From the NCBI GenBank assembly GCA_963781565.1, contig CAWAHA010000029.1, positions 15,683 to 79,682 of the forward strand: a stretch of DNA of 64,000 nucleotides, in the 5' to 3' direction. The translations under genes and the position numbers were made by a program. The notes below the pieces were generated by a model. The model was not told where the DNA came from and ran no database searches. It saw nothing but the letters and a program-made list of their open reading frames with translations. Origin of the DNA: an uncultured Acidimicrobiaceae bacterium (lineage in GTDB: Bacteria > Actinomycetota > Acidimicrobiia > Acidimicrobiales > RAAP-2). Below, in pieces: positions 8,188 through 50,882 of the stretch. How positions within the stretch are numbered: the first letter of the stretch is position 1; each line of letters starts with the position of its first letter.

Positions 8188-8200
8188 TGACCGGGCCGGG

Positions 8201-12679: not shown

Positions 12680-13096
12680 TCGGGTGAGTCTGCTGCTGCG
12701 CTCTTGGCGCAGTCGCAGCGCACGGCCGAGAGCGTTTGGGCCTACGCCTCGATCGAGGATGTGCGCGGCAACCTGCGGCGTACCGGATACCCCGAGGCCA
12801 GGCTCCACTTTGTGAAGGGACCAGTCGAAGAAACATTGCCGGAGCAGGCACCTACCCAGATTGCAGTGCTTCGGCTGGACACCGATTGGTATGAGTCCAC
12901 AAGGCACGAGCTTGAGCATCTCATCCCGCGACTCGTTCCAAACGGCATCCTCATCGTTGATGATTACGGACATTGGAAGGGTTCGCGCAAGGCAGTCGAT
13001 GAGTTCCTCGCAGGTAGCAACCGGCCGGTCCTGTTGAACAGAACCGACTACACCGGCCGTATGGCCGTAGTCCCCGGGGCAGCGCTTCTGGATTGA
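12680..13096 (+). pseudogene. C-terminal half of a TylF/MycF-type O-methyltransferase (same orientation as the N-terminal half at 8625)
   Basis: ORF 12704..13096: SIEDVRGNLRRTGYPEARLHFVKGPVEETLP...IAVLRLDTDWYESTRHELEHLIPRLVPNGILIVDDYGHWKGSRKAVDEF, the classic metal-binding/SAM C-terminal core of the family. Confidence 0.7.
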
Positions 13097-20800: not shown

Positions 20801-21482
20801 ACGGTGGGTGTAGTGACTGTCGTTGGTGGCGAGCAGCGGCGCACCGATGCGTCGGGCGATCTCAATCAGCTGAGGATTCGTACGGTGCTGGTCGGCGATG
20901 CCGTGGTCCTGGATCTCGACGAAGAGGTTCTCCTTGCCGAAGATGTCCTGCAGGCGGGCCGCCTTCTTCTCGGCCCCCTCCACGTCGCCGGCCAGCAGGG
21001 CCTGGAGCACCACACCGCCCAGACACCCCGTGGTGGCGATCAGGCCCGCCGCATGACGCTCGAGCAGCTCCCAGTCGACTCGGGGCTTGTAGTAGTAGCC
21101 CTCGAGATACGCGGCCGAGGACAGCTGCATGAGGTTGCGATAGCCCTCGACCGTCTCCGCCAACAGGGTCAGGTGGTAGTAGAGCTTCTGCCCGCCCTCG
21201 ACGTCGCCGCCCGTGTCGTCCACCCGGCCCCGGCGCACGGGTCGCTCCAGTCCGTGACTCGCCCGCCATGTAGGACTCGGTGCCGATGATGGGCACGACG
21301 CCCTGGTCGCGGCAGGCCTTGTAGAAGTCGAGGACCCCGTACATGTTCCCGTGGTCGGTGATGCCGAGCGCCGGCTGGCCGTCGGCCACAGCGGCCGCGA
21401 CCAAGTCCCCCACCCGTGCGGCTCCGTCCAACATGGAGAACTCGGTGTGCGTGTGCAGATGCGTAAACGACCGCTCCGACAC
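17892..21482 (-). CDS. dnaE: DNA polymerase III alpha subunit; three frame corrections (about 21240, 20320, 18810)
   Basis: Four ORF pieces (20862..21482, 20093..21238, 18211..20316, 17892..18845) tile a full DnaE. They cover the PHP domain (FTHLHTHTEFSMLDG), the palm/fingers (LLKMDFLGLRNL, FNKSHSYGYG) and the OB/C-terminal part. Confidence 0.95.
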
Positions 21483-21588
21483 CGGCCCTCCTCTCGTCGT
21501 GGTACTTACACCGGTGTCATTCGTCCGGGACTCAGCAATCTACCCCGCGGCTGCGCGGCGGCGATTGACCGCTGGCGGTTCACGGCAC

Positions 21589-23913: not shown

Positions 23914-24487
23914 TCATCCCCGCAGGTTCCACGCCTCAATAGCCGGCCAGTCGAGTTCCCAGCCCAGGACGCAGACCGCCCCTGTCCGCAACAGGAAGAG
24001 GCGCCCGGCCACCGGAGGCAGCCCGAGCCACCGTGCCGTCAGCACCCGCAAAATGTGCCCGTGGGCCACACACAGGGTGTCGGTCTCGATGGCGCGGGCC
24101 CGCGCAATGACCCGGTCCGCCCGGCGGCCGACGTCGGCGGCGGTCTCCCCGGCGGGCACGCCGTCGTCCCACAGCGTCCAGCCCGGTCGGAGCTTCCGGA
24201 TTTCCGGCGCTGGTCAGGCCCTCGTAGTCTCCGTAGTCCCACTCCATCAGGTCGGGCTCGGGCTGGCCCTCGTACCCGGCCAGGGTGCACGTCTCCTCGG
24301 CCCGGACCAGCGGGCTGGTCAGCACCTGCCCGAAGTTCGTGGGGCCGTACTGGCGCACGAGGATGCCCGCTGCTCTCGCCTGCTCATTGCCCTCGGAGAG
24401 AAGGGGAATATCTGTGCGTCCCGTGTGTTTTCCATTCTCGGACCACTCGGTCGCCCCGTGTCGAAGAAGCACCATCCGGCCAGGCAT
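23914..24487 (-). CDS. Histidine phosphatase (phosphoglycerate mutase-like) family protein; one frame correction near 24190
   Basis: MVLLRHGATEWSENGKHTGRTDIPL (RHG motif) in ORF 23936..24796. The C-terminus, with the second catalytic His (LCVAHGHILRVL), is in ORF 23914..24159. Confidence 0.8.
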
Positions 24488-24644
24488 GGGGCGTAGACCA
24501 CCACGAGCCGGAAAACGACGCAACTCGGTCCGAACACCCCGATGGAATGATCCGGAGGCAAGTCCGGTTATACCCGACAGGTTGATCCCGGATTCACCCG
24601 GGTACGTACGACTGGGAGTGAGAGAAAGAACGTCTGGAGCCAAG

Positions 24645-25481
24645 ATGAAGAGCGCGGTGAGCACGTCGGACACATTGGGACTGATGCTGCGAGACCTCGA
24701 CCAATTCCCGATGCCCGACCATGAGCAGCAGGTCGAGCTAGCCAAGAGGGTCGTGGCCGGTGATGATGCTGCGAGAAAGCAGATGGTTGCCGCCAACCTG
24801 CGGTTGGTGGTGCACTGGGCCCGGCGCTACCAGGACCGAGGGGTCGACATGGCCGACCTGGTCCAAGAAGGCACCTTCGGGCTCATGCGCGCCGTGGACA
24901 AGTTCGACTGGGAGCGAGGCTTCCGGTTCTCCACCTACGCCACGTGGTGGATCCGGCAGGCTCTGCAGCGTGCCGTGCAGCAGCACGGCCGCACAATCCG
25001 CATCCCCCTCGAGGTCGGTGAGCAGATCCAGCGGCTCGAGCTGACCAAGTCCGAGCTCGCCAGCACTCTGGGCCGGAAGCCCACGGTGGCCGAGCTGGAC
25101 GAGGCGACTGGGATGACGGCGGACGAGCGGGAGTCCCTCGAGGACGTGGCCCGCGTGACCGCATCCTTGGATCAGCCGGCAGCGCTCGAGTCCTCGACCA
25201 CCTTGGGCGAGCTCGTCGCTCCCGATGACTCGGATTTCGTCATGGACGTGGAGCAGACGATGGTCTACGACCGGGTCCGCGATGCAGTCGAGCGCCTGCC
25301 CGGCCTGCAGCGGGACGTGCTCAGGCTCCGTTTCGGCTTCGACGGTGACTCGCCGGCCTCGTTGCAGTCCACGGCGGAGCGACTCGGCGTCGGTGTCCGG
25401 CGTGTGCGTCGGGCCGAGGAGGAGGCCCTGGCTGCACTGCAGTTCGATGCCGACGTCGTCGGCATCCACCAGGCCGCCTGA
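24645..25481 (+). CDS. Sigma-70 family RNA polymerase sigma factor (regions 2-4, no region 1.1)
   Basis: ATG 24645 lies within ORF 24285..25481. Contains DLVQEGTFGLMRAVDKFDWERGFRFSTYATWWIRQAL, RTIRIP and a region 4 HTH (SLQSTAERLGVGVRRVRRAE). No frame break. Confidence 0.85.
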   Translation: MKSAVSTSDTLGLMLRDLDQFPMPDHEQQVELAKRVVAGDDAARKQMVAANLRLVVHWARRYQDRGVDMADLVQEGTFGLMRAVDKFDWERGFRFSTYATWWIRQALQRAVQQHGRTIRIPLEVGEQIQRLELTKSELASTLGRKPTVAELDEATGMTADERESLEDVARVTASLDQPAALESSTTLGELVAPDDSDFVMDVEQTMVYDRVRDAVERLPGLQRDVLRLRFGFDGDSPASLQSTAERLGVGVRRVRRAEEEALAALQFDADVVGIHQAA

Positions 25482-27854: not shown

Positions 27855-28739
27855 TCAGGTGGCCGGATGCCCCGAACAAGACCTCGCCCGGGGAGCGGGT
27901 GACGATACCGGAATGCGAGGGACAGGGGCAACAAGCCCTGCCGTCCCGAGGGGGTTGGTCAGATGGACCCGGGCGATCCCGAGACGGACGCGCTCTGCAG
28001 GTTCAGGGTCGGCGGACCGTCTTCGGTCTCCGGGCAGCCGTTGCGGCCGGGCGTCCTGGTCGTGTGGCATCTGCTGGGGCGCCGCCTTCGGCTTGACCCC
28101 CATCAGCGAGTTGGCCGGCTGCACGTTCTCGTCGACCCACTTGAGGATCTCGGACAGGGCGCCGCGCAGCCGGTTGCGCTCCGACTCGAGGTGGCGGGCC
28201 ATGCTCTCCACATCGGTGGCCAGCTCAGTGCGGGTGGCCTCCAGCCGCGTGACCTCCTCGCGGAGCTTCTGGTGCGTCTCGGCCTGGAGTTGCGCCGACG
28301 TCGCCTCGGCTGCGGCAATGGCGGCGCGTGCCGTCTCCTCTGCCTGGGCGACGACCACCGCCGCCTCCGCCTCGCTCTCCCGCTTCGTCTGGTCGACGAA
28401 CTTCTGCGCCAGGAGGAGGGTGCGCTGCAGCGTCTCGTCGGAGAGTGCATTGGCCTCGGCCGTGGCGGCCGCCGCCGCAGCTGCCGCGGCGACGCCCTCT
28501 TCGCTGTCGGCCGCCATCGGCGCCGCCCGCTTGTCCCGCTCGAGCTGCGCGATGCGCTCGCTGGCCTGGCGCAGCCGCTCGTTCAGTTGCCGGACGTGGT
28601 CCTGGAGCCCTTCGGCTTCCTGGGCCGCCTTGTCCAGGTACTCATCGACCTCGTCGACGTTGTAGCCCTTCAGCCCGAGGCGGAATTCCACGGTGCGGAG
28701 CGTGTCGAGGATCGATGAGGGGGCCTGAGAATTGTCCAT
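27855..28739 (-). CDS. divIVA: DivIVA/Wag31 polar growth and division protein
   Basis: LRTVEFRLGLKGYNVDEVDEYLD N-terminal domain plus long coiled coils. The start is taken at the internal ATG 28739. The frame of the C-terminal ~70 aa is uncertain. Confidence 0.85.
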   Translation of the reverse strand: MDNSQAPSSILDTLRTVEFRLGLKGYNVDEVDEYLDKAAQEAEGLQDHVRQLNERLRQASERIAQLERDKRAAPMAADSEEGVAAAAAAAAATAEANALSDETLQRTLLLAQKFVDQTKRESEAEAAVVVAQAEETARAAIAAAEATSAQLQAETHQKLREEVTRLEATRTELATDVESMARHLESERNRLRGALSEILKWVDENVQPANSLMGVKPKAAPQQMPHDQDARPQRLPGDRRRSADPEPAERVRLGIARVHLTNPLGTAGLVAPVPRIPVSSPAPRARSCSGHPAT

Positions 28740-28854
28740 GGATTCTGAGTCTAACCCCAGCACCTTGTGATTCCAGGTATGCCGCGATCAGTTCAGAAGC
28801 ACCGGAATCAGCACGAATTGCGCAACCAGGATGACGGGGAGGAAGGAGAAGAGT

Positions 28855-29106
28855 TCAGCGCCACAAGACCTGGAACACCAGGATGTTGCCAACCACGATG
28901 ACGATCAGGAAGGAGAAATCCAGGCCACCCATCGGCTTGACGATCTTGCGCACCGGCCGCAGCACAGGCTCGGTCGCCTGGTAGAGGAAGTACTGGACCC
29001 GCGCCAGAGGGGTGCCCGGCTGGATTCGGAACCAGCTCAGGATCGCGTAGGGGAACATGATCACCCACATGTACAGCAGGATTAGCAGTCCGATGAAGTA
29101 GAACAC
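28855..29106 (-). CDS. yggT: YggT family membrane protein
   Basis: 83 aa, two TM helices, ILSWF...P...ATEPVLRPVRKIVKPMGGLDFS. Confidence 0.8.
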   Translation of the reverse strand: MFYFIGLLILLYMWVIMFPYAILSWFRIQPGTPLARVQYFLYQATEPVLRPVRKIVKPMGGLDFSFLIVIVVGNILVFQVLWR

Positions 29107-29126
29107 TGCCCGCGAGGGTAATGCGG

Positions 29127-29711
29127 TTAGTCGCGGCCGAAACCGCGCTCAACCAGTCGCTGACGCTCCTCGTCGGAGACCTTGACGTTGGTCGGGGCCA
29201 GCAGGAATACCTGGTCGGCCACTTTCTCCATCTCTCCGCTGAGCGCATAGGTGACGCCGCTGCAGAAATCGATCATGCGCCGCTGCAGGTCGCGGTCGGC
29301 CATCTGGAGGTTGACGATCACCGGACGGTTGTCCTTCAGGCGGTCGGCGATCTCCTTGGCGTCGCCGAACCGAGAAGGCGCCACCACGTGCACCCGTCCC
29401 GAGGCGGCCGGCGCCGGTCCGGTCGGGTTCATGGTCGGGTCGACGGGAACAGCCCGCACCGCCGTCGGACGGGGCGCCACGTTGCTGGGCGTCGACCTGG
29501 TCTGCTGGCTCGGCTGGGCCGACTCACGCGGAATGGTGCGGACCCGGCTCATGCCGCCGCTGAACGCCTCCGCCGGCTCCGGATCCTGGTCCTGAGACCG
29601 GGAGTCGACCCTGGTCGCGGCCGAGAAACCACGCGGCGCGCGGTCCTCCAGGTCGTCGTACTCGTCGTACTCGTCGTCGAGCAGGCCGAGATACACCATG
29701 GTCTTCTTCAT
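29127..29711 (-). CDS. sepF: Cell division protein SepF
   Basis: N-terminal MKKTMVYLGLLDDE membrane-targeting helix. C-terminal core VVAPSRFGDAKEIADRLKDNRPVIVNLQMADRDLQRRMIDFCSGVTYAL. Confidence 0.85.
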   Translation of the reverse strand: MKKTMVYLGLLDDEYDEYDDLEDRAPRGFSAATRVDSRSQDQDPEPAEAFSGGMSRVRTIPRESAQPSQQTRSTPSNVAPRPTAVRAVPVDPTMNPTGPAPAASGRVHVVAPSRFGDAKEIADRLKDNRPVIVNLQMADRDLQRRMIDFCSGVTYALSGEMEKVADQVFLLAPTNVKVSDEERQRLVERGFGRD

Positions 29712-29870
29712 GAACGAGGGTGACATGCCTTCTCCTGTCCTCGGACAGCGTAGTGCCTGCTCGGCAGCGCGGGCAGGTCCTGGAGGACGGGCATCTCGGG
29801 TCCTTGCACCCTGACGCTCCTGCTCAGCCTCATCTCGGCCTCGACCCGAGGTTGCCCGTCAGGCTCCACC

Positions 29871-30527
29871 TCACGCTGCGGTCACCGGCGGGCGCGGCCC
29901 GAAGAGGGCCCGGCCGATGCGCACCATGGTCGAACCGGCGGCGACCGCCGCCTCGAGGTCGTCGCTCATCCCCATGGAGCGTTCCTCCAGCCCGAGGCCG
30001 TCGGCCAGGCGCCCGAGGGTCTCGAACGCCTCCTTTGCCGCACCCTCGCCCGGGGCCGCCACCGTCATGAGGCCTTCCACCTGCAAGCCCGATATCACCG
30101 AGCTGCGCCACCACTGCGCCGGTGGCGGCCGGCGCGCACCCGTTGCGACCGGGCAGGCCGGTCGTCTCGACTTGGACCAGGACCCGCGCCCGGGGGGCGA
30201 ACCGGGCGATCCGCTCACCCTCGGCGACCCGGGCCACGCTCTGCCAGACGCCCACCAGCGGGGCGAGCTGCGCGACCTTGTTCCGTTGCACCGCGCCCAG
30301 GAAGTGCCAGACCACGTCGGTGGTGTCGACCACCCCGGGCCCGGTCCCGCCCCAGCTTCGGCCGCCTTCGCCACGAGCTCCGCCGCGTAGTTCTCACCCA
30401 GGTCGGTCAGCCCGGCATCCACCGCGGCACGCACGGCGTCGGGACCGAAACCCTTGGTGACGCCGATCACCCGCACCCGGGCGGGGTCCCCGCCGGCGCG
30501 CGCAATCCGCTCCCGAACTGCGAGCAA
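29871..30527 (-). CDS. ylmE: YggS/YlmE PLP-binding homeostasis protein; two frame corrections (about 30335, 30090)
   Basis: VIGVTKGFG...LGENYAAEL (ORF 29871..30527 N-terminus), WHFLGAVQRNKV (ORF 29830..30333), and SMGMSDDLEAAVAAGSTMVRIGRALFG (C-terminus). Confidence 0.8.
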   Translation of the reverse strand: MLAVRERIARAGGDPARVRVIGVTKGFGPDAVRAAVDAGLTDLGENYAAELVAKAAEAGAGPGPGWSTPPTWSGTSWARCNGTRSRSSPRWWASGRAWPGSPRVSGSPGSPPGRGSWSKSRRPACPVATGARRPPPAQWWRSSVISGLQVEGLMTVAAPGEGAAKEAFETLGRLADGLGLEERSMGMSDDLEAAVAAGSTMVRIGRALFGPRPPVTAA

Positions 30528-35069: not shown

Positions 35070-36237
35070 CCACCAGCTCGGCGACGCGGGCTGCCGCGTC
35101 GGGGTGCCCGTTCTCCCGGGCCGCTTCGCACATGGCCTGCAGCCGGCCCGGATCCGCCAGCAATGCATCGAGCTCCGAGGCGAGGCGACGCCCGGTGCAC
35201 TCATGATCGGGGATGAGGACCGCTGCGCCCATGCCGACCAGTGCCTGGGCATTGCGTGTCTGGTGGTCGCGTGGAGCTCCGGGCAGCGGGACGAGAATGG
35301 CCGGAACGCCCGAGACCAGCAGCTCGGCCACCGTCATGGCTCCCGCCCGGACGACGCAGACGTCGGCCGCGTTGTAGAAGTCCGGCATCTTGTCCTCGAA
35401 CGGCACCACCCTGTACCGCAGTCCGTCCCCGTCGTCTTCGGTCACGGTGGTTCCGGCGGTCCCGGCGCTCGGCGCCCCCGCTGCGGCCACCGAGCCGGAA
35501 CCGGCGGGCACGAACGCCTCGTAGTCACGCCGGCCGGTGACGTGATAGAGCGCCCGGTCGGCGTGGGGGGCCCAGGCCGTGGCCAGGTCGGCCACGGCGC
35601 GGTTGACCTGGCGGGCGCCGAGCGAGCCACCGGCACAGGCCACGGTCTGGCGGTCCGGAGGCAGATGCAGGTCTGCCCGGCTGGCCGCCCGTCCCAGGGC
35701 GTCTCGCTGCAAGGACGCGAGCTCCGGCCAGACCGGGGTCCCGGTCACATGGGTCCGGGGCAGGTCGGTCCCCGCGAAGGCAACCGCATTGGCCTTGGCG
35801 AACCGGCCGAGCAGGCCGTTCACGGCACCCGGCACGGAGTCTGTGGTCATACAGACGAGGGGCACCCGGGTGAGCACGGCTGCCATCCCGGCGGGAAAGC
35901 TGGCGTACCCGCCGACGATGACGACCACCCGGGGCCGACGGCGGAGGAAGGAGCCGACGGCACGCAGGCAGGCCCAGATGAGCCCCGCCACCGCACCCGC
36001 GTTGGCCCACCAGGCGGAAGGCCGCAGACTGCGGCGCACGCCGCGGCCGTGGAGGAGTGTGTAGGGGAACTCCAGCGTCGGCCAGGTCGTGGCCTCCTGG
36101 CCCCGGCGGGAGCCGTAGAGCTCGATCGTCTGCGCCGAGTGCCCGCGGTCAACCAGGGCGCGCGCAATCTGGAGCGAAGGGACGATGTGACCGCCGGTCC
36201 CACCGCCCGCAATCACCGTGCCGCGCCGTGTGCTCAC
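35053..36237 (-). CDS. murG: Undecaprenyldiphospho-muramoylpentapeptide beta-N-acetylglucosaminyltransferase
   Basis: C-terminal 395 codons of the long ORF 35053..38739: VIAGGGTGGHIVPSLQIA...RAGAMTVAELLVSGVPAILVPLP...HQTRNA. The GTG start overlaps the ftsW stop (GTGA). No frame break. Confidence 0.9.
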   Translation of the reverse strand: MSTRRGTVIAGGGTGGHIVPSLQIARALVDRGHSAQTIELYGSRRGQEATTWPTLEFPYTLLHGRGVRRSLRPSAWWANAGAVAGLIWACLRAVGSFLRRRPRVVVIVGGYASFPAGMAAVLTRVPLVCMTTDSVPGAVNGLLGRFAKANAVAFAGTDLPRTHVTGTPVWPELASLQRDALGRAASRADLHLPPDRQTVACAGGSLGARQVNRAVADLATAWAPHADRALYHVTGRRDYEAFVPAGSGSVAAAGAPSAGTAGTTVTEDDGDGLRYRVVPFEDKMPDFYNAADVCVVRAGAMTVAELLVSGVPAILVPLPGAPRDHQTRNAQALVGMGAAVLIPDHECTGRRLASELDALLADPGRLQAMCEAARENGHPDAAARVAELVDAHAR

Positions 36238-37551
36238 CGACCTCGGGCCGAACCGGCGGGCCGGCGACCCGACCCGGCGAGCCGCAGTGTCGTCCCGGCC
36301 TCGCCCTGCCGGGCGACATTGATCAGGATGCCGGCCGCAGCCATGGTGATCACAAGCGACGAACCGCCGAAGGAGATGAACGGGAGCGGAATGCCGGTGA
36401 CGGGGAGGACGCCGACCACCGCCCCGACGTTGATCAGGGTCTCTGCCCCCACCCAGGCCACCAGCCCGAGGGAGACGAGCGCGCCGAAGCGGTCGGCCGA
36501 CTGCACCGCGGCCCGGATCCCGAGCCACATGAACCCGGCCAGGAGGGCGAGCACGAACAGGGCGCCGACAATGCCGAGCTGCTCGCCGATGACGGAGAAG
36601 ATGAAGTCGGTGTGCGCGTTGGGCAGGAACCCCCACTGCGCCTGACCGCCGCCGAGGCCCGAGCCGACGAAGTGGCCCGAACCCAGACCGATGAGCGACT
36701 GCATCACCTGGTAGCCCGACCCCGAGCTGTGCGCGGAGGGATCCATGAAGGAAAGCAGCCGGGCGCGGCGGTAGGGCGAGGCGATCGCCACGATCAGGGC
36801 CAGGCCGACCAGGGCGGCCATCACCTTCATGACGGGCCCGAGGCGCACGCCGGAGACGAACAGCAGCGCCAGTGCGATGAAACCGAGGACCATGGCCGTG
36901 CCCATGTCCGGCTGGGCCAGGATCAGCACGCAGGCGAATCCGGTGACGATGAGGAGCGGTCCGATGATGCGGCGGTCCGCGGCATCCTCGTCGAGGCGGC
37001 GGGTGATGAAATCGGCGGCGAACAGCGTCAGGGCGAGCTTCATCAGCTCGGAGGGCTGCAGGCGGAACTGCCCGAAGCCGACCCAGCGGCTGGAGCCCAT
37101 GGCGTGCACCCCGAGGCCCGGGACGAGCACCACGAAGAGGAGCCCGATCGTCACCAGCATGATGAGGGGGCTGAAGCGGCGCAGCTTGCGGTAGTCGAAG
37201 CGGATGGCCAGCCAGAGCACCACGGCGCCGATCGCCATCCACATGGCCTCGCGGATCAGGATCGCCCAGGGCGACCCGTAGGTGGCGATGGAGACGACCG
37301 AGGACGCTGAGCCCACCATGACGAGGCCGATGAGGCAGAGCAGGACGACGTCGAGGAGCAAGAGCGTCGAGACCGAAATGCGGTGGCTGCCGATGCGGAC
37401 GCCGAGTCCCTCGGTACGGGCGGCCTGGCGGTGTGCCAGTCGAGCGCGGGCCGGCGCTGGCCGTCTTCACCTTGGCGACGGGCGTCCGGCGGGGCCGGGG
37501 CGACGTGTGTCGCTCCGGCGTGGCTGTACTGGTACTGCGGGTCAACGTCAT
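36234..37551 (-). CDS. ftsW: SEDS peptidoglycan glycosyltransferase FtsW; one frame correction near 37460; alternative in-frame start at ATG 37701
   Basis: ORF 36234..37361 has the SEDS core (QPSELMKLAL, PDMGTAMV, HTDFIFSVIGEQLG, GIPLPFISFGGSS). The Arg/Pro-rich N-terminal tail lies in the frame of the long ORF, starting at ATG 37551 or 37701. Confidence 0.85.
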
Positions 37552-37701
37552 GGCGCCCACTCCCCCTGGGCGCGGGCGCGCCGCTCTGCCCGGTCCGACA
37601 CCCGATGCATGGAGCCAGTCTCCCCCACCGCGCGGCCGAAGTGGCGGACCGCGCCGCCGAGCCGGCACACCGAGCCGCGCCTCGCCGCCGGAGGAGGTCA
37701 T
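37548..37701 (-). other. 154-nt segment occupying the canonical murD slot (no MurD-sized ORF present)
   Basis: ATG 37701 overlaps the mraY stop (ATGA). One frame runs in-frame into ftsW. Another reads RRGSVCRLGGAVRHFGRAVGETGSMHRVSDRAE... and stops in a TGA that overlaps ATG 37551. Confidence 0.6.
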
Positions 37702-38739
37702 GTGAACTTCGCCACCGTCAGGAAGTCCCCGTAGAAGATCCCGAGCCCCAACGCGCAGAAGAGGCCGCCGAGGATCCAGAAGCGGACGATGACCGTCGTC
37801 TCGGGCCAACCGCCGAGCTCGAAGTGGTGGTGGATGGGAGCCATGCGGAAGATGCGTCGGTGGAAGGCGCGAAAGCTGATGATCTGCAAAATCACCGACA
37901 CGGTCTCCATGACGAAGAGGCCGCCGATGATGAGGAGGAGGAGATCGAGGTTGAGCAGCAGGCAGAGCGCGGCCAAGCCGGCGCCGATGGCCAGCGACCC
38001 GGTGTCGCCCATGATGATTTTCGCCGGCGCCGCGTTCCACCAGAGGAAGCCGATGCACCCGCCGGCCAGCGCCACCGACACCAGCGCCAGATCGACGGCC
38101 GACGCCGGCAGCACGTGGTAGATGGAAAAGTGCCGGAAGATCCAGTACCCCATGATCGAGAGCACCGCGAAGCAGAAGGTCCCCGACCCGGCGGCGAGAC
38201 CGTCGACGCCGTCGGTGATGTTCACCGCGTTGGACGTGCCGACCATGACCAGAACGGCGAAGATGATCCAGCCGATCGGCCCGAGATTGATGCCGATCAC
38301 GTCGATCCGGGTGAACGACAGCGCGGTCGAGGTGTGGGCCCAGTAGCACGGCCAGCACGGCGAAGACCAGGGCGCAGGCGATCTGCGCGCCGGACTTGCC
38401 CCGCTTGTTCAGCCCGAGGCTCCGCTTGTGGTGGACCTTGATGTAGTCGTCGAGGTACCCGATGAGGCCGAACGCCACCACGGCGCCGACGGCCAGGTAG
38501 CCGGTGCGGGAGAACCGGATCTCGGTGCCGATGTGCCCGATGGCGTAGCCGGCCACCGTGGCGGCGACGATGGCGATGCCGCCCATGGTCGGCGTCCCTG
38601 CCTTGGCCGAGTGGGAGGCGGGGCCGTCTTCTCTGATGTGCTGACCCAACTCGCGCTGGCGGAAGTAGCGGATGAGGAAGGGGGTGAAGAGGATGGCGAT
38701 CCACAGAGCGACGCTTCCCGAGACAAGCAGGCCGAGCAC
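37698..38739 (-). CDS. mraY: Phospho-N-acetylmuramoyl-pentapeptide transferase; one frame correction near 38335
   Basis: N-terminus in the long ORF (GTPTMGGIAIV...GYLDDYIKV). C-terminus in ORF 37698..38300 (NAVNITDGVDGLAAG, MGDTGSLAIG, APIHHHFELGGW). The GTG start lies 11 nt after GGAGG. Confidence 0.9.
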
Positions 38740-38876
38740 GGGGTGTCAGGCCTCCGGCAGGGACTGCCGGGATGCCGATTCGCCGCGCGCCGCCACCGGA
38801 GACGCCGCCACCGAAGAACTCGACGCCGCGCCCGCTCGCCACACCGACGCCGGGCTGCGCCGTCCACGTCCGCGGG
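38740..38876 (-). other. 137-nt segment occupying the canonical murF slot (no MurF-sized ORF present)
   Basis: Lies between the murE stop (TGA 38877-38879) and the mraY GTG (38739). It contains only the mraY RBS and short reading frames. Confidence 0.6.
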
Positions 38877-40364
38877 TCAGCGCTGAAACGCGACGAGAGA
38901 ATCCGGCGGGCCTCGACGGCGTCGTCGAAGGGGAGGCGCTCGCCGGCCACCTCCTGGTACGTCTCGTGGCCCTTTCCCGCAATGACCACGACATCGCCCG
39001 GCCGCGCCGCATCGAGGGCCAGGCGGATGGCGACACGGCGGTCTGGCTCGACGACGATGTGCGGGTTGGACCGCCCACCAGGGACGCCGCCCAGCACATC
39101 CTCGAGAATGGCCAGCGGGTCCTCGAAGCGTGGGTTGTCGGACGTGAGGAACGCCAGATCGCTCAGTTGCGTCGCCGCCGCGCCCATCAGAGGCCGCTTG
39201 GCCCGGTCCCGGTTCCCCCGCAGCCGAAGACGCAGAGCACCCGGCCCGATGGGGCCAGCCGGCGCGCCTCGCCGAGCACGACCTCCAGTCCGGCCGGCGT
39301 GTGCGCGTAGTCGACCAGCACGGTGAAGGGAGGGCCGTCAGACGCCCGTCGTGCTTCCCGGGCGCGGCAATGACCTGGAGCCGGCCCGGCACCGGACCGA
39401 GGTGAGCCATCGCCCGTGCGATCTCCTCTGGCCCGAGTTCCAGCTCGTCGAGCGCCAATGCGGCCTCCGCCGCCAGGAGGGCGTTGTCCACGTTGACGGC
39501 ACCCGTCAGCGGGGTGACGATCCGCTGCCCGCGCCAGGTGAACTCCGAGTGGCCCGGACGCAGCACAATGTCGGTGGCATCACCGTGATGCACGGCGATG
39601 GTGGGGATGCGGGCGCGCTCCAGGAGACGTTGTCCCCACGGATCGTCCGCGTCGACGACGCCGCGCAGCGCGTGGCTCGGGGTGAAGAGCATTGCCTTGG
39701 CCTCGAAGTACTCCTCCATCGTCCCGTGGTAGTCGAGGTGGTCGTGGCTGAGGTTGGTGAAGACCGCGACGTCGAAATGGATGCCCTCGACCCGTGCTTG
39801 GACCAGCGCGTGGCTCGACACCTCCATGGCGACCGCATGACGATGGCCGTCGGACTTCTGGCGGTCGCGCACACCGGCCAGCACCCGCTGCACCTCGGTG
39901 GCCTCGGGCGTCGTGCGCGTCCCTGACAACGTCCCCATGACGTTCGTCGGACGGCCGGTCGCGCCGAGGAGGTCGCCCAGCAACTGCGTCACGGTCGTCT
40001 TGCCGTTGGTTCCCGTCACGCCGATCATCAACAGATCACGGGCGGGGTAGCCGTAGAAGGCGGCGGCCAGCCGGGCCATGACCGGGCGCATGGTGCCGGC
40101 CGCGATCCGGGTCTGCACCACGTCCTGGTCGATCAGCTCGGGAATGAAGTGCTCGCACAGGAGGCCGATGGCGCCACGATCGACCGCCTCGGCGGCGTGG
40201 GCGTGCCCATCGCTGACACCCCCGGGGACGCAGCAGAAGAGGTCACCGGGAACGACCCGGCGACTGTCGTGCGAGATCCCGCTGACCTCGACCGCCGAAG
40301 GGTCGCCGACGGACTCAATGACCTCTATGTCGTCGAAGAGGAGGTTCATAGGCACGCGTGGCAT
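38877..40364 (-). CDS. murE: UDP-N-acetylmuramoyl-L-alanyl-D-glutamate-2,6-diaminopimelate ligase; two to three frame corrections (about 39300, 39215, possibly 38900)
   Basis: [45 protein letters not shown] (ORF 38877..40508). [19 protein letters not shown] lies in a second frame. [11 protein letters not shown]...[11 protein letters not shown]...AGKGHETYQ is in ORF 38297..39187. The DNPR motif suggests meso-DAP specificity. Confidence 0.9.
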
Positions 40365-40434
40365 GGTCGAACCGACAGCGTTGCATGCCTCGGACACGCC
40401 TGCGACACGACTGCAATGGGCGTGTCCAGCAATG

Positions 40435-42594
40435 TCACGTGATGTCCTGGGCCTGGTCCGATGTGGAGGTCGGCGTGGCGCCGGGCGTCGTGGCCGGCGT
40501 CTGGGCACCGGGAGTGGTGGGGATGTCGTAGCGGTGGAGGGCGTAGCTCATGATCTGCGAGAACACCGGAGCGGCCACCGTGCCGCCGAAAATGGGTGTC
40601 GGCCGGTCCAGCACCACAATCATGGAGAGGGTCGGGTTGGCGGCTGGGGCGAACCCGACGAAGGACGCCATGTAGGCGCCGGTGATGTAGGAGTCGTGCC
40701 CCGTCGTGGGGATCTGGGCGGTCCCCGTCTTCCCGGCCACCGTGTAGCCCGGGACGGAGGCGCTGGTCCCGGTGCCCTCGTTCACGACCTGCTCCAACAT
40801 GGTGGACAGTTCCGAGTCGATGGAGGGCGAGAACACCTGATGGGTGGCCGAAGGAGCCGTCTTGGTCAGGGCACCCGATGGGCTGACCGTGGCCTGGACG
40901 AGCTTCGGCGCCACGTACGTGCCCCCGTTGGCCACCGCGTTGTAGGCATCGAGCACCTGCAGCGCGCTGACGGCGTCAACCTGGCCGATGGGGAGTGAGA
41001 CGTAGTCCGTCGGCTCCCACTGCGCGGCAGTTGCCAGCAGTCCAGGGGACTCGCCCGGGAAGTCGAGCCCTGTGGGCTGACCGAAGCCCAACGCCTTCAC
41101 CTGGTTCAGCAGACGCTGCTCCCCCACACCCTGCGCAATGAGTCCGGTCCCGATGTTGGACGACTGCGCCAGAATCTGCGTGGCACTGAGCTGCTCGGTC
41201 GGGTGGGGCTCGGCGTCGTGGAACGACGACCCGTCCAGGCTGATCTGGTCGGGCACGGTGAACACGGTGTTCGGGTTGATGAGGCCGAACTGCAGGGCCG
41301 CCGAGAACGTCACCAGCTTGAAGACCGAGCCCGGCTCGTAGAGCTGCGTCACGGCCAGGTTGCTCGAGGCTTCGTTGATGGCGTCCTTGGGACCGATCGG
41401 CACCACGCCGCCCGGATCCGACGGCGTCGTCGCGGGAGTGGCACCGAGCGCTGCCGGATGCGTTGCGACGAGATTGGCCATGGAGAGGATTTGCCCGGTC
41501 TTGACGTCCATGACGACGGCCGTGCCGCTCGTGGCGTTGGAGGTCTCGATCGCGCCGGCGAGCGCCTGCTCGGACTCGTACTGCAACTGCGAGTCGAGGG
41601 TGAGCTCCAGCCCGGTGCCCGGGCTCGAGGCCACCTGCTGGGTGGCCGGGGACTGGGGCAGCGTCACCCCGGCGGGCGACTGTTGAATCGTCTCTTTGCC
41701 TTCGATCCCGGCTTTTCGACCTTGTTGTACTCGTACTCGAGCCCGGCCCCGCCATTGCCGGCGGCGTTCGTGAACCCGACGACGGGCGCGGCAAGGTTGC
41801 CGTTGGGCACCTCCCGCTTGGAGTCGGCGATCAGCGAGATGCCGGGGAAGGCGTCTGCAGAAATCGTCTGCCCGGTGGACTGCGGGAGCTGGTGAGCCAG
41901 GACGATGTAACCGGTCCGCTGGTGCAGCTCGGTGGCCAGCGTCGCCACCGGGACGTGAATGATGGGTGAGAGTGCAGTGGCGGTCTGGACCGGATGCGAG
42001 AATCTGAAAGTCGTCGGCCACGACGTCATCGGTGGGGACAGAGAGGGCAAGTGGCGCGCCATCACGGTCGTAAATGCCACCACGCACCGACGGCACCGAG
42101 ACGGTGATGGCGGACTCACCGTGCGCCGCCGCCTGGTACGAGCTCGAGTGCAGGACCTGCACGTCGACGAGCCGGGCGACCACCAACAGCATGGCCAGAA
42201 TGAGCACCATCCGGATCAGCCGGACCCGGCGGGTGAAGGTGCCGTTCTCCCAGCCGCGCCCGCGGCGCTCCCGGGTGGTCTTGGTCGGGGGGCGGCGTGG
42301 GTGCGGCCGCTGGCGGGGCCGGCTGGCCGGCGCTGCTGCCGCAGCGGCCGGACGCCGGGGAACCGCCGGCTGACGACGCCCGGGCGGGGCCGGACGGCGC
42401 CGGACGCGCCGCGGGGCGGGCCGGACGTGTTCTCGTGGACGACGCCCGCGCCGACGGATCGGTCGGACGGGCCGCCCGTCCTTGCGTGCGATCCGTCGTC
42501 GTCCTGGTGCTGCGGATTCCGCCCGAGGAGCTGCTCCGGCGGCCTGAACCAGCGCGCGCGCGCGCCCAGGGTCTTGTCGGGTCGGACTGCTCAC
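40435..42594 (-). CDS. ftsI: Class B penicillin-binding protein (FtsI-type transpeptidase); two frame corrections (about 41990, 41705); start uncertain
   Basis: TM helix plus dimerisation domain (RGGIYDRDGAPLA). The middle part is in ORF 41664..42119 (GLEYEYNK). Transpeptidase motifs present: PGSVFKLVT (SxxK), SSN, KTGTA. Confidence 0.85.
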   Translation of the reverse strand: MSSPTRQDPGRARALVQAAGAAPRAESAAPGRRRIARKDGRPVRPIRRRGRRPREHVRPAPRRVRRRPAPPGRRQPAVPRRPAAAAAAPASRPRQRPHPRRPPTKTTRERRGRGWENGTFTRRVRLIRMVLILAMLLVVARLVDVQVLHSSSYQAAAHGESAITVSVPSVRGGIYDRDGAPLALSVPTDDVVADDFQILASGPDRHCTLTHHSRPGGDAGHRAAPADRLHRPGSPAPAVHRADDFCRRLPRHLADRRLQAGGAQRQPCRARRRVHERRRQWRGRARVRVQQGRKAGIEGKETIQQSPAGVTLPQSPATQQVASSPGTGLELTLDSQLQYESEQALAGAIETSNATSGTAVVMDVKTGQILSMANLVATHPAALGATPATTPSDPGGVVPIGPKDAINEASSNLAVTQLYEPGSVFKLVTFSAALQFGLINPNTVFTVPDQISLDGSSFHDAEPHPTEQLSATQILAQSSNIGTGLIAQGVGEQRLLNQVKALGFGQPTGLDFPGESPGLLATAAQWEPTDYVSLPIGQVDAVSALQVLDAYNAVANGGTYVAPKLVQATVSPSGALTKTAPSATHQVFSPSIDSELSTMLEQVVNEGTGTSASVPGYTVAGKTGTAQIPTTGHDSYITGAYMASFVGFAPAANPTLSMIVVLDRPTPIFGGTVAAPVFSQIMSYALHRYDIPTTPGAQTPATTPGATPTSTSDQAQDIT

Positions 42595-43157: not shown

Positions 43158-44099
43158 CAGGCGGCTTCGGCTTCCGTGCGAACAATGGCGCGCAGGCGAG
43201 CACTCTCCGAGCGAGGATTGGCCGCTATCTCAGCCGCCGATGGCTTGCGGGCGCCACGGAACACGAGCTGATGGCGCACCACGGCTCCGCAGACACAGGG
43301 CAGACCCGGCGGGCAGACGCACCCGCCTGAGGCGGCCTCGGCGAAGACCTGCTTCGTCAGCCTGTCCTCCCCCGAGTGGTAGCTGATGACAGCGCACACG
43401 CCTCCGACGGCCAGGTGCGACAAGGCGACGGGCAGCACCGTCGCCAGCTGGCCGAGCTCGTCGTTCACCTCAATGCGCAGGGCCTGGAACACCCGCCGGG
43501 CGGGGTGACCCTTCCGGCGGGCCGGCGCCGGCACGGCCGACGCCACGACTTCGGCCAGCTGCCTCGTGGAGGTCAGTGGCCGGGCTTGGACGACAGCACG
43601 GGCGATGCGCCCGGACAGCCTCCCCTCGCCGTTCTGGCGGAACAGGGTCGCCAGCTCTTGCACCGGGAGGGTGTTGAGCAGGTCGGCGGCGGTCGACGCC
43701 GCTTGTCGGGTCCATCCGCATGTCGAGCGGGCCGTCCTGGCGGAACGAGAAGCCACGCTCGGACCAGTCCAGCTGCGGGGAGCTCACGCCCAGATCGAGG
43801 AGCACTCCCGAAAGCGGCCCGAATCCCGAACGCGAGAGCACCGCCTCCAGGGTGGAGAAAGGTGCGGCCAGCAGCGTGACCCGGTCCCCGAAGTCCGACA
43901 ACCGAGCGCGTGCGGCCTCGAGTGCCGCCGGATCGCGATCCAGCCCGACGACGCGCAGGGCGGGGTAGGCGTCGAGCAACGAGGCGGCGTGCCCGCCCCC
44001 ACCGACGGTCGCGTCGACGACCACCCCTGGGGGTACGGATGCGAACAGCGAGACCACCTCGTCGCGCAGCACGGGAATGTGTTCGAACGAGTGGGCCAT
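43157..44099 (-). CDS. rsmH: 16S rRNA (cytosine1402-N4)-methyltransferase; one frame correction near 43720
   Basis: HIPVLRDEV...DATVGGGGHA...GVLLDLGVSSPQLD..RGFSF..DGPLDMRMD (ORF 43470..44204), then RIARAVV...RVFQALRIEVNDEL...ISYHSGEDRL (ORF 43157..43756). Confidence 0.9.
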
Positions 44100-44312: not shown

Positions 44313-44735
44313 CTAGGCCTCGTCGTCGAGCAGCCAGCTCTCCTCCGGCAGCACCCGCTCGGCCCAGGCCGTCGGGTTCCACAGCTCCACCCGGTCGATC
44401 GCCCCGTGCACGAGTACCTCGGACTCCAAGAGGGCGAAGGTCCGCAGATGGGCGGGAATCGGCATACGTCCCTGCCGGTCGATCTCCACCTCGGCCGAGT
44501 TGGCCGCCCATATCCGGGCGCGGTTCCGGTCGGCGCGACCGGACTCTGTCTTCTCCTGCATTGCCTCCATCTGCCGCTCGAACTCCCCGGGGGTCCACAG
44601 CGCCAGACAGCCCTCGGAGTTCTGGGTGAGATACCCGCCACGCTCGTCGAACTGGGCGCGGAACTTCGCAGGCAGGATCACCCTGCCCTTGGTATCGAGC
44701 GAATGCTCGTATCTCCCTACGAAGCCTGCTGCCAC
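44313..44735 (-). CDS. mraZ: Transcriptional regulator MraZ
   Basis: FVGRYEHSLDTKGRVILPAKFR and a second DxxGR repeat (EIDRQGRMPIPAHLR). The GTG start lies 9 nt after GGGAG. Confidence 0.9.
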   Translation of the reverse strand: MAAGFVGRYEHSLDTKGRVILPAKFRAQFDERGGYLTQNSEGCLALWTPGEFERQMEAMQEKTESGRADRNRARIWAANSAEVEIDRQGRMPIPAHLRTFALLESEVLVHGAIDRVELWNPTAWAERVLPEESWLLDDEA

Positions 44736-44788
44736 TGGCTGGATCTCCCACGACGCTCCCTGGCTTGCGTCCTCTGACGCCCCCTCAC

Positions 44789-44844
44789 ACCACTCCGCGC
44801 CACTTTAAACCCTTTTCCACCACCGCACAACCACTAGAACCCAC
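44789..44844 (-). promoter_or_regulatory. Candidate MraZ operator: five GTGG(G/T) boxes, two pairs with 10-nt phasing, 54-109 nt upstream of mraZ
   Basis: CCAC is found on the plus strand at 44790, 44800, 44817/44820, 44831 and 44841. The minus strand reads caGTGGGttctaGTGGTtgtgcgGTGGTGGaaaagggtttaaaGTGGcgcggaGTGGT. Confidence 0.45.
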
Positions 44845-45100: not shown

Positions 45101-45799
45101 CTAGCCGGCCGGTGTCGCCGTCCCATCCTTCACCGTGAAGTCGGTGAAGGACTCCAACAGCGCGGCACGCAGCGGAGCCAGATCACGCACCGGCGGCTCC
45201 AGCTCCGCCAGCCCGCACGCCACGGAGGGCAGGCCTCCGGCCAGGTCGGCCCGCCTGCGCGCATCCACGTCCATGAGCGCCAGCAAAGAGGTCGGATCCC
45301 AGCGGAGGTAGGCGCACGAGGAGAACAGGGCCCCTTCCCGGGCCCGCCACTGCGAAAGGCCGACCACCTTGCGAGAGCCGTGGAACACCTCGCCCGGCCC
45401 GCGGCCTGCGAAGCACACGAGGTCGCCGAGCGCCCCGGGCGCCGATCGGCCCCGGTGCACCGCCAAGCCGCGCTGACCCAGGCCGGTCAATGCCCCCGTC
45501 CACCACGCCCCGACCCACTCGGCCGCGGCCGACACGTCGGCGACCCACAGCGGGTCGTCACGCGGGATCCAGGCGTCGAGCCACAGCTGGTCGCCCGGCC
45601 CGAGGGAGACCGCGCCTCCCCCGCCACGCCGCCGGGCCAGCTCGACCCCGCCCGCTTGCAGCCGAGCCGTGTCGACGAGCTCCCTCGGCTGGGTACTGCC
45701 GAGCACCACCGTCGGGACCGCCACGTCACGGGCGACGGCGACCCGCCGGCTGCGGGTGCGGAACTGCTCGACGTCGAAGAGGGACTCGGGAGAAGGCAA
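45101..45799 (-). CDS. Biotin/lipoate A/B protein ligase (LplA/LipB-like) family protein
   Basis: Intact 232-aa ORF. VLGSTQ...RRRGGGGAVSLGPGDQLWLDAWIP...KVVGLSQWR matches the BPL_LplA_LipB catalytic-domain pattern. Confidence 0.65.
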   Translation of the reverse strand: MPSPESLFDVEQFRTRSRRVAVARDVAVPTVVLGSTQPRELVDTARLQAGGVELARRRGGGGAVSLGPGDQLWLDAWIPRDDPLWVADVSAAAEWVGAWWTGALTGLGQRGLAVHRGRSAPGALGDLVCFAGRGPGEVFHGSRKVVGLSQWRAREGALFSSCAYLRWDPTSLLALMDVDARRRADLAGGLPSVACGLAELEPPVRDLAPLRAALLESFTDFTVKDGTATPAG

Positions 45800-45802
45800 G
45801 CC

Positions 45803-46309
45803 TCAGGACGCCGCGGCGAGATACGGCTCCCACAAGGGGTCCACATCCGACAAGTGACGCAACCGCCAGAGATGCCCGTCCGGAGGAGCGGGCTTCACGC
45901 TCATCGTCCAACCCAGCTCGGACAGGAGCTGGTCGGCCTTCACCAGGTTGTCGCGCTTGCAGGCGGCGACGACGTTGGACCAGTCGTGGGTGCCGCCTCG
46001 GCTGCGCGGGATCACATGGTCGATGGTGTCGGCCGGCTGGGAGCAGTAGACGCAGAGCCCACCGTCACGCCGCAACACGGAGCGCCGGGTCACGGGCGGC
46101 GTACGGGCCCAGCGCGGAATGCGGACCATGTGTGAGAGGCGGACGATCGACGGCACGTCGATGGAGAGGCGGGCCGAGTGGAAGACGCTGCAGTCTTCGC
46201 GGATGGCAACGGCCTCGGCTCGTCCCGCCAGCATCAGAACGACGGCACGACGATCCGAGACGAGGGCCAGCGGCTCATAGGTCGCATTGAGGAGGAGCAC
46301 CCGCTCCAT
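45803..46309 (-). CDS. HNH endonuclease (small McrA-like type)
   Basis: CVYCSQPADTIDHVIPRSRGGTHDWSNVVAACKRDN. Intact, 168 aa. Confidence 0.8.
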   Translation of the reverse strand: MERVLLLNATYEPLALVSDRRAVVLMLAGRAEAVAIREDCSVFHSARLSIDVPSIVRLSHMVRIPRWARTPPVTRRSVLRRDGGLCVYCSQPADTIDHVIPRSRGGTHDWSNVVAACKRDNLVKADQLLSELGWTMSVKPAPPDGHLWRLRHLSDVDPLWEPYLAAAS

Positions 46310-46321
46310 ACGGAAGAGAGG

Positions 46322-50213: not shown

Positions 50214-50785
50214 CCACGCCCAACCTTGGTGCACCACGGCCCCGCGGCCTCGTCGTCCCACCGGAGCCGCTTGAAGACCGGCCGTACCGCATCGTCTTCG
50301 TCTGCACCGGGAACATCTGCCGCTCCCCCATGGCCGAAGTGATCACGCGTGCGCTGGCGGCATCGACCGACCTGGCGGACGGGACCACGCTGGCCGACCA
50401 CCTCGAGGTGCGCAGCGCCGGGACCGGGCCGTGGCACGAAGGCGAGCCGATGCATCCGCTGGCGCAGGCTGCGCTGGTCCGCGCCGGGTACCCGGACCAT
50501 CCGCACGTGGCCCATCAGGTCGTGTCCGCCGAGCTCGGGAGCATCGACCTCCTGGTCGCGCTCGATCGCCGCCACCAGCAGACCCTGCGCAGCCTGGGCG
50601 CCGACCCCGACCGTCTCGCCCTCCTCCGCTCCTTCGACCCCGCCGCCGGTGCGGCCGCCGATGTGCCCGACCCCTACTACGGCGACGACGAGGTCTTCGG
50701 CGAGTGCCGCGACATGATCGCCGCCGGCTGCGCCGGGATCGTCGCCTCCCTGGCGTTCCAGCGGGACACCCGCGGGGTGGCCTAG
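50210..50785 (+). CDS. Low-molecular-weight protein tyrosine phosphatase
   Basis: VFVCTGNICRSPMAE (CX5R P-loop) and DPYYG. The GTG start overlaps the upstream stop (GTGA). Confidence 0.85.
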   Translation: MTTPNLGAPRPRGLVVPPEPLEDRPYRIVFVCTGNICRSPMAEVITRALAASTDLADGTTLADHLEVRSAGTGPWHEGEPMHPLAQAALVRAGYPDHPHVAHQVVSAELGSIDLLVALDRRHQQTLRSLGADPDRLALLRSFDPAAGAAADVPDPYYGDDEVFGECRDMIAAGCAGIVASLAFQRDTRGVA

Positions 50786-50882
50786 GCACAGCCGGTCCCG
50801 ACAGCGCGCCAGCCGCGCGAAGCCGCTGGTCAGCCACCGTCCACCCCGGGGGCCGGGGCAGAGTCTGTGCCATAGTGCCGAC

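Follow-up and report, generated by a model that had tools for sequence, protein, structure and literature searches.

In canonical division and cell wall (dcw) clusters, murD occupies the position upstream of ftsW, and the gene order in Mycobacterium tuberculosis is murE-murF-mraY-murD-ftsW-murG-murC-ftsQ-ftsZ. In Bacillus subtilis, murF lies beside ddl, outside the dcw cluster, and murE followed directly by mraY is the normal Bacillus order. The M. tuberculosis dcw operon has been described as Rv2158c–Rv2150c (PMC3605390), and the Streptococcaceae have a split dcw, in which mraW-ftsL-pbp-mraY form one cluster and murD-murG-ftsQ...ftsZ a second (PMC8136486). It is common for mur genes to leave the dcw cluster while being retained in the genome (PMC8871954, PMC8136486). 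Here we analyzed a stretch of 64,000 nucleotides from an uncultured Acidimicrobiaceae bacterium (GenBank assembly GCA_963781565.1, contig CAWAHA010000029.1, positions 15,683 to 79,682; designated as the window), which is DNA of a soil or peat Acidimicrobiales bacterium and carries a dcw cluster without murF and murD at their usual positions. The original prediction, made from the letters of the window, regarded two short gaps, one between murE and mraY and the other between mraY and ftsW, as stubs of these genes, and proposed relocation with almost clean excision, non-orthologous replacement or the loss of two segments in the assembly. Comparison with related genomes indicates that the cluster is very probably a compacted dcw typical of the lineage, in which the first stub is the end of murE and the second a putative control module in front of ftsW.

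On the minus strand of the window, the genes are aligned in the order mraZ-rsmH-ftsI-murE-mraY-ftsW-murG-murC-murB-ftsQ-ftsZ (Table 1). The cluster starts as the canonical actinobacterial dcw does, with mraZ-rsmH followed by ftsI and murE, and the ftsW-murG-murC-ftsQ-ftsZ block is present, with murB additionally between murC and ftsQ. It shares with the canonical cluster the order and orientation of mraZ, rsmH, ftsI, murE, mraY, ftsW, murG, murC, ftsQ and ftsZ, the tight packing with overlaps and the downstream sepF-yggT-divIVA block, but differs from it by the lack of murF and murD, by the presence of murB inside the cluster and by a module with a small upstream open reading frame (uORF) before ftsW. 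The murF slot is empty, as murE stops at 38746 and mraY starts at 38739, which leaves only 6 nt in between, and the murD slot is empty as well, the 146-nt mraY-ftsW spacer being too short for a 1.4-kb gene. The absence of both genes from their usual slots was thus borne out: there is no room for 1.4 kb at either junction, and tblastn with MurD and MurF probes matched only murE and murC. The coupling signals reported for the neighboring genes are also present, namely a GGAGG before the mraY GTG at 38739, an ATGA where mraY stops and, at 37551, an ftsW ATG overlapped by a TGA. FtsW has an N-terminal extension of ~60 residues.

Genes were called by Pfam scans of stop-to-stop open reading frames (ORFs), which recognized FtsI, MurE, MraY, FtsW, MurG, MurC, FtsQ and FtsZ, and gene limits were taken from the proteins of L001, a clean Illumina-assembled relative that served as the reference for gene limits and indel calls, mapped onto the window. 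The window and L001 align as a single collinear block of 15.5 kb with 89.8% identity and small indels only; the G+C content of the dcw region of the window is ~70%. Relatives were collected by a scan with the FtsW core, taking one genome per species. The resulting 80 species-level loci are all from Acidimicrobiales/Acidimicrobiaceae metagenome-assembled genomes (MAGs) with an FtsW identity of 75–98%; many are Microflora Danica long-read MAGs, and ~16 are short-read assemblies (MEGAHIT k141/k127 or SPAdes NODE contig names). Four loci (L027, L033, L046 and L067) belong to complete chromosomes (OY970336.1, OY969694.1, OY969891.1 and OY970387.1). In addition, 27 independent JGI/ENA metagenome contigs from different projects and assemblers were retrieved with a scan pattern consisting of the box described below and GTGNGGGAGACT, giving 107 related loci in total.

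When searched by tblastn with the window proteins, all 80 genome loci displayed the order ftsI-murE-mraY-ftsW-murG, packed too closely to accommodate a 1.4-kb gene at either junction, and the metagenome contigs (27/27) carry murE-mraY, the module and then ftsW-murG-murC. Both junctions, murE-mraY and mraY-ftsW, are common to 80/80 genome loci and 27/27 metagenome contigs. Since the relatives routinely exhibit the same order (107/107 loci), which is the outcome that the original prediction had itself named as making the order lineage-typical, the arrangement is a property of the lineage and not an anomaly of the window. The dcw without murD and murF is an ancient, lineage-wide trait, present in relatives down to 75% FtsW identity. 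It is a variant dcw architecture in Actinomycetota of which we found no description; a literature search returned nothing specific on a murD/murF-less dcw arrangement in Acidimicrobiia. As in the variant and split dcw clusters of Firmicutes, where single mur genes leave the cluster as a stable, lineage-wide trait and stay in the genome, mur genes are out of the cluster here; unlike in those clusters, the bacteria are Actinomycetota, murF and murD are absent together, and the remaining cluster is undivided. One locus, L011 (MFD06092.bin.2.63, uncultured Actinomycetota), differs upstream: its similarity to the window and L001 starts at the murE 3' end (L011:8359), and unrelated sequence (L011:1-8360) stands in place of ftsI and most of murE, which reflects either a real rearrangement or a chimeric contig.

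The supposed murF stub is the 3' end of murE. When L001 MurE (548 residues) was mapped onto the window by tblastn, residues 1–351 were found in frame −3 (40397–39345), residues 334–395 in frame −2 (39387–39211) and residues 394–548 in frame −1, from 39217. Beyond a further shift near 38835, the MurE tail ...VAASPVAARGESASRQSLPEA* is in the frame of the TGA at 38748–38746, as in the L001 C terminus, so that the window MurE ends with SLPEA at this TGA, followed by cacccc and the mraY GTG at 38739. In ~50/78 relatives, the murE stop is exactly 6 nt upstream of the mraY start, and the mraY Shine-Dalgarno sequence lies inside the final murE codons. Because the stop of the relatives is 6 nt before mraY and the window tail matches L001, the apparent murE stop at 38877 is, by this comparison, a wrong-frame stop arising from indels at ~39362, 39343, 39217 and 38835, and the last ~43 murE codons are judged to be out of frame in the window through small indels. 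The 137 nt once counted as a gap (38740–38876) are therefore coding, the L001 MurE alignment running to the TGA at 38748–38746, and the peptide GGGARRIGIPAVPAGGL, to which a likeness to the MurF N terminus had been ascribed, is a wrong-frame translation of the murE tail with no significant similarity to the protein (best E ~0.5). The MurE of this lineage has an additional Ala/Ser-rich, poorly conserved C-terminal tail of ~45 residues past the end of the family model (L001:8480-8619; window 38746–38890); the TIGR01085 match on L001 MurE stops near residue 500 of 548.

The second stub is of a different nature. The mraY-ftsW spacer measures 146 nt (37552–37697) rather than the 154 nt first reported; its first third is variable with indels, and its 3' ~100 nt are strikingly conserved across the relatives. 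The conserved part comprises a box, TCCGCCACTT, a −10-like hexamer, a uORF and a small hairpin (Table 1). In 76/81 sequences, the box precedes an ATG or GTG (RTG) by exactly 38 nt. The hexamer, nAnnnT, ends exactly 6 nt before the RTG in 76/76 sequences, and its A2 and T6 are invariant, with variation at positions 1, 3 and 5 (GAGACT in 51, GAGAAT in 9, AAGACT in 8, and others). Among the 73 sequences in which the uORF reaches a stop, 54 have 20 codons (range 17–27, plus one of 47), and the consensus is M-H-R-V-S-D-R-A-E-G/R-R-A-R-A. In 64/81 sequences, the RTG overlapped by the uORF TGA shares an open frame with the FtsW core; five more have a CTGA junction. In the window, the uORF TGA (37550–37548) overlaps the ftsW ATG (37551–37549), which accounts for the overlapping TGA noticed at the outset. 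The peptide of this spacer that had been compared with the MurD N terminus results from a frame running through the non-coding box and the start of the small uORF, and it has no significant similarity to MurD (best E ~0.5).

The pattern of conservation in this spacer is that of a selected element. The mean pairwise identity of the 44-nt module core is 0.889, compared with 0.554 at mraY fourfold-degenerate sites, 0.513 in the variable spacers of the module and 0.943 at mraY codon positions 1+2. The frame and length of the uORF and the RTGA overlap are kept although its 3' half is variable in sequence, with indels, and synonymous-type third-position variation is observed at uORF codons 7, 8 and 12–14. 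RNAalifold returned only a 4-bp hairpin and no larger structure, with 94% of cells paired. One pair of the hairpin is changed from GC to CG in seven sequences without any breaks, and the closing pair is U.G, U-A or A-U; double-change cells number 18 versus 4.8 in shuffles, none of 500 shuffles reached 18, and controls slid along the alignment collapsed. Judged by this conservation, the second stub is a probable cis-regulatory module under selection in the murD slot, and the ftsW leader module is strongly conserved and previously undescribed.

The module is confined to this locus. The box has a single occurrence in the window; no locus has more than one copy of the hairpin 14-mer, which is present in 52/81 loci, always in the mraY-ftsW spacer; and all metagenome matches to the module pattern (27/27) are dcw loci. 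A regulon motif was rejected for the box on these grounds, the box being unique in the window and the 14-mer and metagenome matches being confined to the mraY-ftsW spacer. Three other candidates were also rejected. Pairing of the TCCGCCAC box with the loop GUGUCGGA is contradicted by uncompensated changes of T to G (14 sequences) and G to A (3). A known RNA family was not recognized: the whole window has no Rfam match at gathering thresholds, and the sole match in 37300–37800 is a chance one (E = 6.4). No conserved ORF starts at the ATG that overlaps the mraY stop; the sequence that follows is variable with indels, and L001 lacks the ATG.

Two described systems in Actinomycetota are close to this arrangement. 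In mycobacteria, leaderless translation both requires and needs only an RTG at the transcription start, and operon genes are often preceded by short leaderless ORFs (PMC4633059; 10.1101/834739). In the Streptomyces dcw, an ftsW-specific internal promoter has been inferred from WhiA binding (PMC3781837); WhiA/WhiB activate ftsW from a site inside murD, 269 bp upstream of ftsW, which needs a GACAC upstream of the −35 element (PMC3781837, PMC10243135). The module before ftsW resembles the former in its RTG located 7 nt after an nAnnnT −10 element, in the length of its ORF (~20 codons) and in the placement of this ORF directly before the next gene, whose start it overlaps, and mycobacteria are likewise Actinomycetota. 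It differs in that the peptide is Arg-rich and not Cys-rich, in the presence of a Shine-Dalgarno-like GGGAG and a conserved hairpin, and in its position inside an operon instead of at the head of a transcript. With the Streptomyces promoter it shares a dedicated, here putative, input to ftsW amid an actinobacterial dcw cluster, and the Streptomyces WhiA/B target sepX is also leaderless (PMC3781837, PMC10243135). The two differ in that the sole conserved complement of GACAC in the module is at +11 to +15, in the hairpin loop within the uORF, which is not the geometry of WhiA/B activation (PMC10243135).

With the RTG taken as +1, the box would span −38 to −29, and the hexamer would have its A at −11 and its T at −7. 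Box and hexamer would then have the geometry of a sigma-70-family promoter, from which a leaderless transcript would start at the uORF RTG, and the RTGA overlap would couple ftsW initiation to uORF termination instead of to murD. Coupling of ftsW translation to the uORF is suggested because the uORF stop overlaps the ftsW start, and the hairpin or the Arg-rich peptide may modulate it. Alternatively, the uORF could be translated from read-through mraY mRNA via the GGGAG 9 nt upstream. As expected for a leaderless ORF, the distance between the RTG and a −10-like element carrying A at −11 and T at −7 is constant (76/76), and as expected for a coupled uORF, the ORF frame, length and stop/start overlap are conserved beyond sequence conservation. 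We infer the promoter from this geometry, and consider it rather likely that the module, with its promoter-like box, ~20-codon uORF with hairpin and RTGA overlap, is a functional regulator of ftsW. Several points weigh against this interpretation. The box is unlike the sigma-A −35 element, a simple sigma-70 consensus scan of 37300–38900 finds nothing, and the GGGAG before the uORF would be superfluous on a leaderless mRNA. The hairpin has only 4 bp, and few independent covariation events are represented because the covarying sequences form few sequence groups. Finally, uORF codons 3–6 are without any synonymous variation, which implies that part of the uORF conservation is at the nucleotide or RNA level and not at that of the peptide.

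A different reading is that the spacer element is purely an RNA or protein-binding site on the polycistronic mRNA, such as a processing or stability hairpin or a repressor site, with no promoter and an ORF that is not functionally translated. The invariant third positions of codons 3–6 favor such a site, as does the maintenance of the hairpin by paired non-synonymous changes (CGG to CCG with CGG to GGG), and the GUGUC in the loop, the complement of the WhiA motif GACAC (PMC3781837), provides a lead only. A site of this kind does not explain why the ORF length, frame and RTGA overlap are kept despite a variable 3' half with indels, and neither the A at −11 and T at −7 (76/76) nor the box at a fixed distance is explained by a hairpin alone; RNAalifold found no larger structure and Rfam gave no match. 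We therefore regard it as unlikely and prefer the promoter with a coupled uORF. The invariant loop GUGUCGGA contains GTGTC at +11 to +15 of the uORF; as the motif is short and so placed, its presence may be coincidental. A WhiA/WhiB-type promoter is not indicated, since no conserved GACAC is present upstream and the region upstream of the box is unconserved.

The whereabouts of the two missing ligase genes were addressed with sequences of E. coli MurD and MurF and an M. tuberculosis-type MurD as tblastn probes; the latter was confirmed at 99% identity by a protein search, in which the best 120 matches listed were all Mycobacterium. In the whole 64-kb window and in the 27 metagenome contigs, only murE and murC were matched, and in the 80 genome loci (~21 kb of dcw neighborhood in each, ~1.6 Mb in total) matches at E ≤ 1 fell only at the murE and murC positions (146 and 105). 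Both genes are absent from the 30 kb downstream and the 19 kb upstream of the window cluster and, in the 80 relatives, from the 10 kb on each side. L001 MurE scores 421 bits on TIGR01085 (MurE, cut-off 257) and L001 MurC 457 bits on TIGR01082 (MurC, cut-off 335), which both pass, while on the MurD (TIGR01087, cut-off 212) and MurF (TIGR01143, cut-off 289) models they remain below the cut-offs, with 85 and 92 bits for MurE and 126 and 56 bits for MurC, respectively. L001 MraY (314 bits on TIGR00445, cut-off 192), L001 FtsW (360 bits on TIGR02614, cut-off 337.5) and MurB pass as well. From these NCBIfam scores, the cluster holds exactly two Mur ligases, MurE and MurC.

Given that MurC, MurE, MraY, MurG, MurB, FtsW and FtsI are intact and strongly conserved in the lineage, the D-Glu- and D-Ala-D-Ala-adding steps should be encoded outside the cluster, and both murD and murF almost certainly reside elsewhere in the genome. 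What weighs against this is that the murD and murF of the lineage were not located, which makes relocation an inference. The opposite view, that the lineage is without canonical MurD and MurF anywhere and uses non-orthologous or repurposed ligases or a differently built stem peptide, can point to the failure to find either gene in the window, in ~1.6 Mb of the relatives' dcw neighborhoods and in the metagenome contigs. The pentapeptide used by MraY and by the FtsI transpeptidase ends in D-Ala-D-Ala, and MurC, MurE, MraY, MurG, MurB, FtsW and FtsI are canonical with equivalog-level scores; mur genes, moreover, commonly leave the cluster yet stay in the genome. This view is thus very improbable, and the non-orthologous replacement envisaged in the original prediction finds no support. 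A lineage-specific FtsW control module in the vacated murD slot is a more likely, and more modest, novelty than the absence of MurD and MurF.

Of the relocation with near-clean excision proposed at first, the relocation survives as an option in a modified form, as an ancient and lineage-wide event, whereas the stubs are not relics of murD and murF. A recent excision, in which the stubs would be decayed murF and murD remnants in this organism or its close ancestors, was suggested by the faint resemblance to the MurD and MurF N termini, and the RTGA overlap before ftsW resembles the coupling of successive genes in operons. A recent excision is nevertheless highly improbable: MurD/MurF similarity is lacking in the stubs (best tblastn E-value ~0.5 in the 1.5-kb region), and at E ≤ 1 all matches in the loci are to murE and murC; the first stub is coding sequence of murE; the second, instead of decaying, is maintained by purifying selection as an element of its own; and relatives with as little as 75% FtsW identity have the same arrangement.

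The frameshifts that riddle the window were missed in the original prediction, and they created one of the two stubs. In addition to the murE indels (near 39362, 39343, 39217 and 38835), comparison with L001 revealed a 1-nt insertion in mraY at ~38347 (38346–38347), which splits the gene into two frames, and one in the 5' part of ftsW at ~37440 (37439–37440), between the extension and the core, so that L001 FtsW residues 1–38 map to frame −2 and residues 38–438 to frame −3. Further 1-nt insertions are in murC (34787), murB (33523, 33122 and 33115) and ftsZ (31332); in the Pfam scans, the MurC N-terminal domain is in another frame than the middle and C-terminal domains, and the N-terminal part of FtsZ is out of frame. 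In the relatives, mraY has 346 codons, and in 76 of the 78 scored its two halves form one uninterrupted frame. Outside the cluster, dnaE (17895–21505) is split over at least three frames, and an ABC ATPase gene is interrupted by one additional C at 61539; on a 3.6-kb JGI contig of 97.6% identity (sample 3300055389) the gene is intact, and this C is the sole indel within it, the remaining differences being substitutions. Most of the indels are insertions in G+C-rich runs. Since the fragments of the broken genes are still 92–98% identical to the L001 proteins (murB, 84–89%), they point to consensus errors and not to pseudogenes, and since dnaE and the ABC ATPase gene are broken as well, to a general indel error rate. 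Long-read assembly or consensus errors are therefore the most likely origin of the indels, and the contig looks like an insufficiently polished long-read assembly. It counts against this explanation that the indels were judged to be errors by comparison with relatives and not with reads. A break in rsmH at 43696 is also among the single-base indels splitting housekeeping genes, and several nanopore-based relatives have similar breaks, e.g., mraY halves out of frame in L057 and L072.

If the frameshifts were real, the cluster would be decaying in a wall-less or degenerating organism, with the loss of murD and murF as a part of this decay, and six of the ~10 dcw genes are indeed frameshifted in the window. 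This is scarcely credible, because the dcw genes broken in the window are intact in the relatives, the high identity of the fragments to L001 (92–98%; murB, 84–89%) is unexpected for pseudogenes, dnaE and the ABC ATPase gene are also broken, and most events are single-base insertions in G+C-rich runs. The dropout of two ~1.4-kb segments with murF and murD from the contig is effectively refuted: although the window is clearly error-prone at the single-base level, it is collinear with L001 over 15.5 kb with small indels only, the same junctions recur in 80 genomes and 27 metagenome contigs, including MEGAHIT/SPAdes short-read assemblies, and the junction sequences (the 6-nt murE-mraY spacer and the module before ftsW) are conserved.

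Table 1. Features of the dcw region of the window and of the module preceding ftsW.
Feature	Position	Strand	Basis or remark
mraZ	44316-44804	-	Pfam MraZ
rsmH (MraW methylase), in-frame part	43160-43783	-	Pfam
ftsI, class B penicillin-binding protein	40438-42594	-	Pfam Transpeptidase E = 2.7e-70; L001 FtsI residues 1-717, one frame
murE	38746-40397	-	Pfam Mur_ligase_M; L001 MurE by tblastn; TGA stop at 38748-38746; four frame segments
'137-nt murE-mraY stub'	38740-38876	-	murE 3' end (38746-38876) + 6-nt spacer cacccc (38740-38745)
mraY	37698-38739	-	Pfam MraY_sig1 + Glycos_transf_4, in different frames
mraY-ftsW spacer, 146 nt	37552-37697	-	sequence and alignments
box TCCGCCACTT	37639-37648	-	38 nt upstream of uORF start
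-10-like hexamer GAGACT	37617-37622	-	ends 6 nt before uORF RTG
uORF, 20 codons, MHRVSDRAERRARAQGEWAP	37548-37610	-	ATG 37610; TGA 37550-37548
hairpin N-CGG [GUGUCGGA] CCG-N'	37590-37605	-	inside uORF, nucleotides +6 to +21
ftsW	36234-37551	-	Pfam FTSW_RODA_SPOVE E = 4.6e-105; L001 mapping
murG	36237-35053	-	L001 mapping
murC	35168-33680	-	L001 mapping; frameshifted
murB	33686-32649	-	L001 mapping; in three pieces
ftsQ	32689-31840	-	L001 mapping
ftsZ	~31750-30548	-	L001 mapping; frameshifted
ylmE-like fragment (YggS-type, Ala_racemase_N)	29871-30527		between ftsZ and sepF; Pfam; C-terminal part in frame
sepF	29130-29858		flanking gene
yggT	28858-29148		flanking gene
divIVA	27858-28787		flanking gene

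Downstream of ftsZ, ylmD was not found between ftsZ and ylmE in the window, which agrees with its reported absence, and a ylmE-like fragment is in frame between ftsZ and sepF; the ylmE gene is probably frameshifted too, because only its C-terminal part is in frame. Immediately upstream of mraZ are a lipoate-protein-ligase-like gene (45104–45802) and an HNH endonuclease gene (45806–46321). A gene for a sigma-70 family factor (24237–25478, 414 codons) with regions 1.2, 2, 3 and 4 lies ~5 kb downstream of the division cluster. A gene with a PGA_cap (CapA-like capsule synthesis) domain is present at 50718–52253, and no CapB-type partner of the Mur ligase family was detected in the window. Positions 8000–13000 have a G+C content of 0.61–0.65, compared with ~0.70 elsewhere, and few ORFs with a coding signature; the sole recognized gene there is a phosphoesterase-family fragment (9122–9730), and the region could be acquired or degraded.

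The cluster thus combines a stable lineage trait with assembly noise and should not be taken for gene loss or misassembly, and the contig needs polishing before any of its genes is called a pseudogene. The lineage provides a clean natural case of two mur genes uncoupled from an otherwise intact dcw operon in Actinomycetota, which bears on the idea that Mur enzymes need co-expression through gene order (PMC10214165). Owing to its specificity, the module before ftsW could be used as a sequence marker of this lineage. Should it prove to be a promoter with a coupled uORF, it would constitute a dedicated control point for the septal peptidoglycan polymerase in abundant, uncultured soil Acidimicrobiales.

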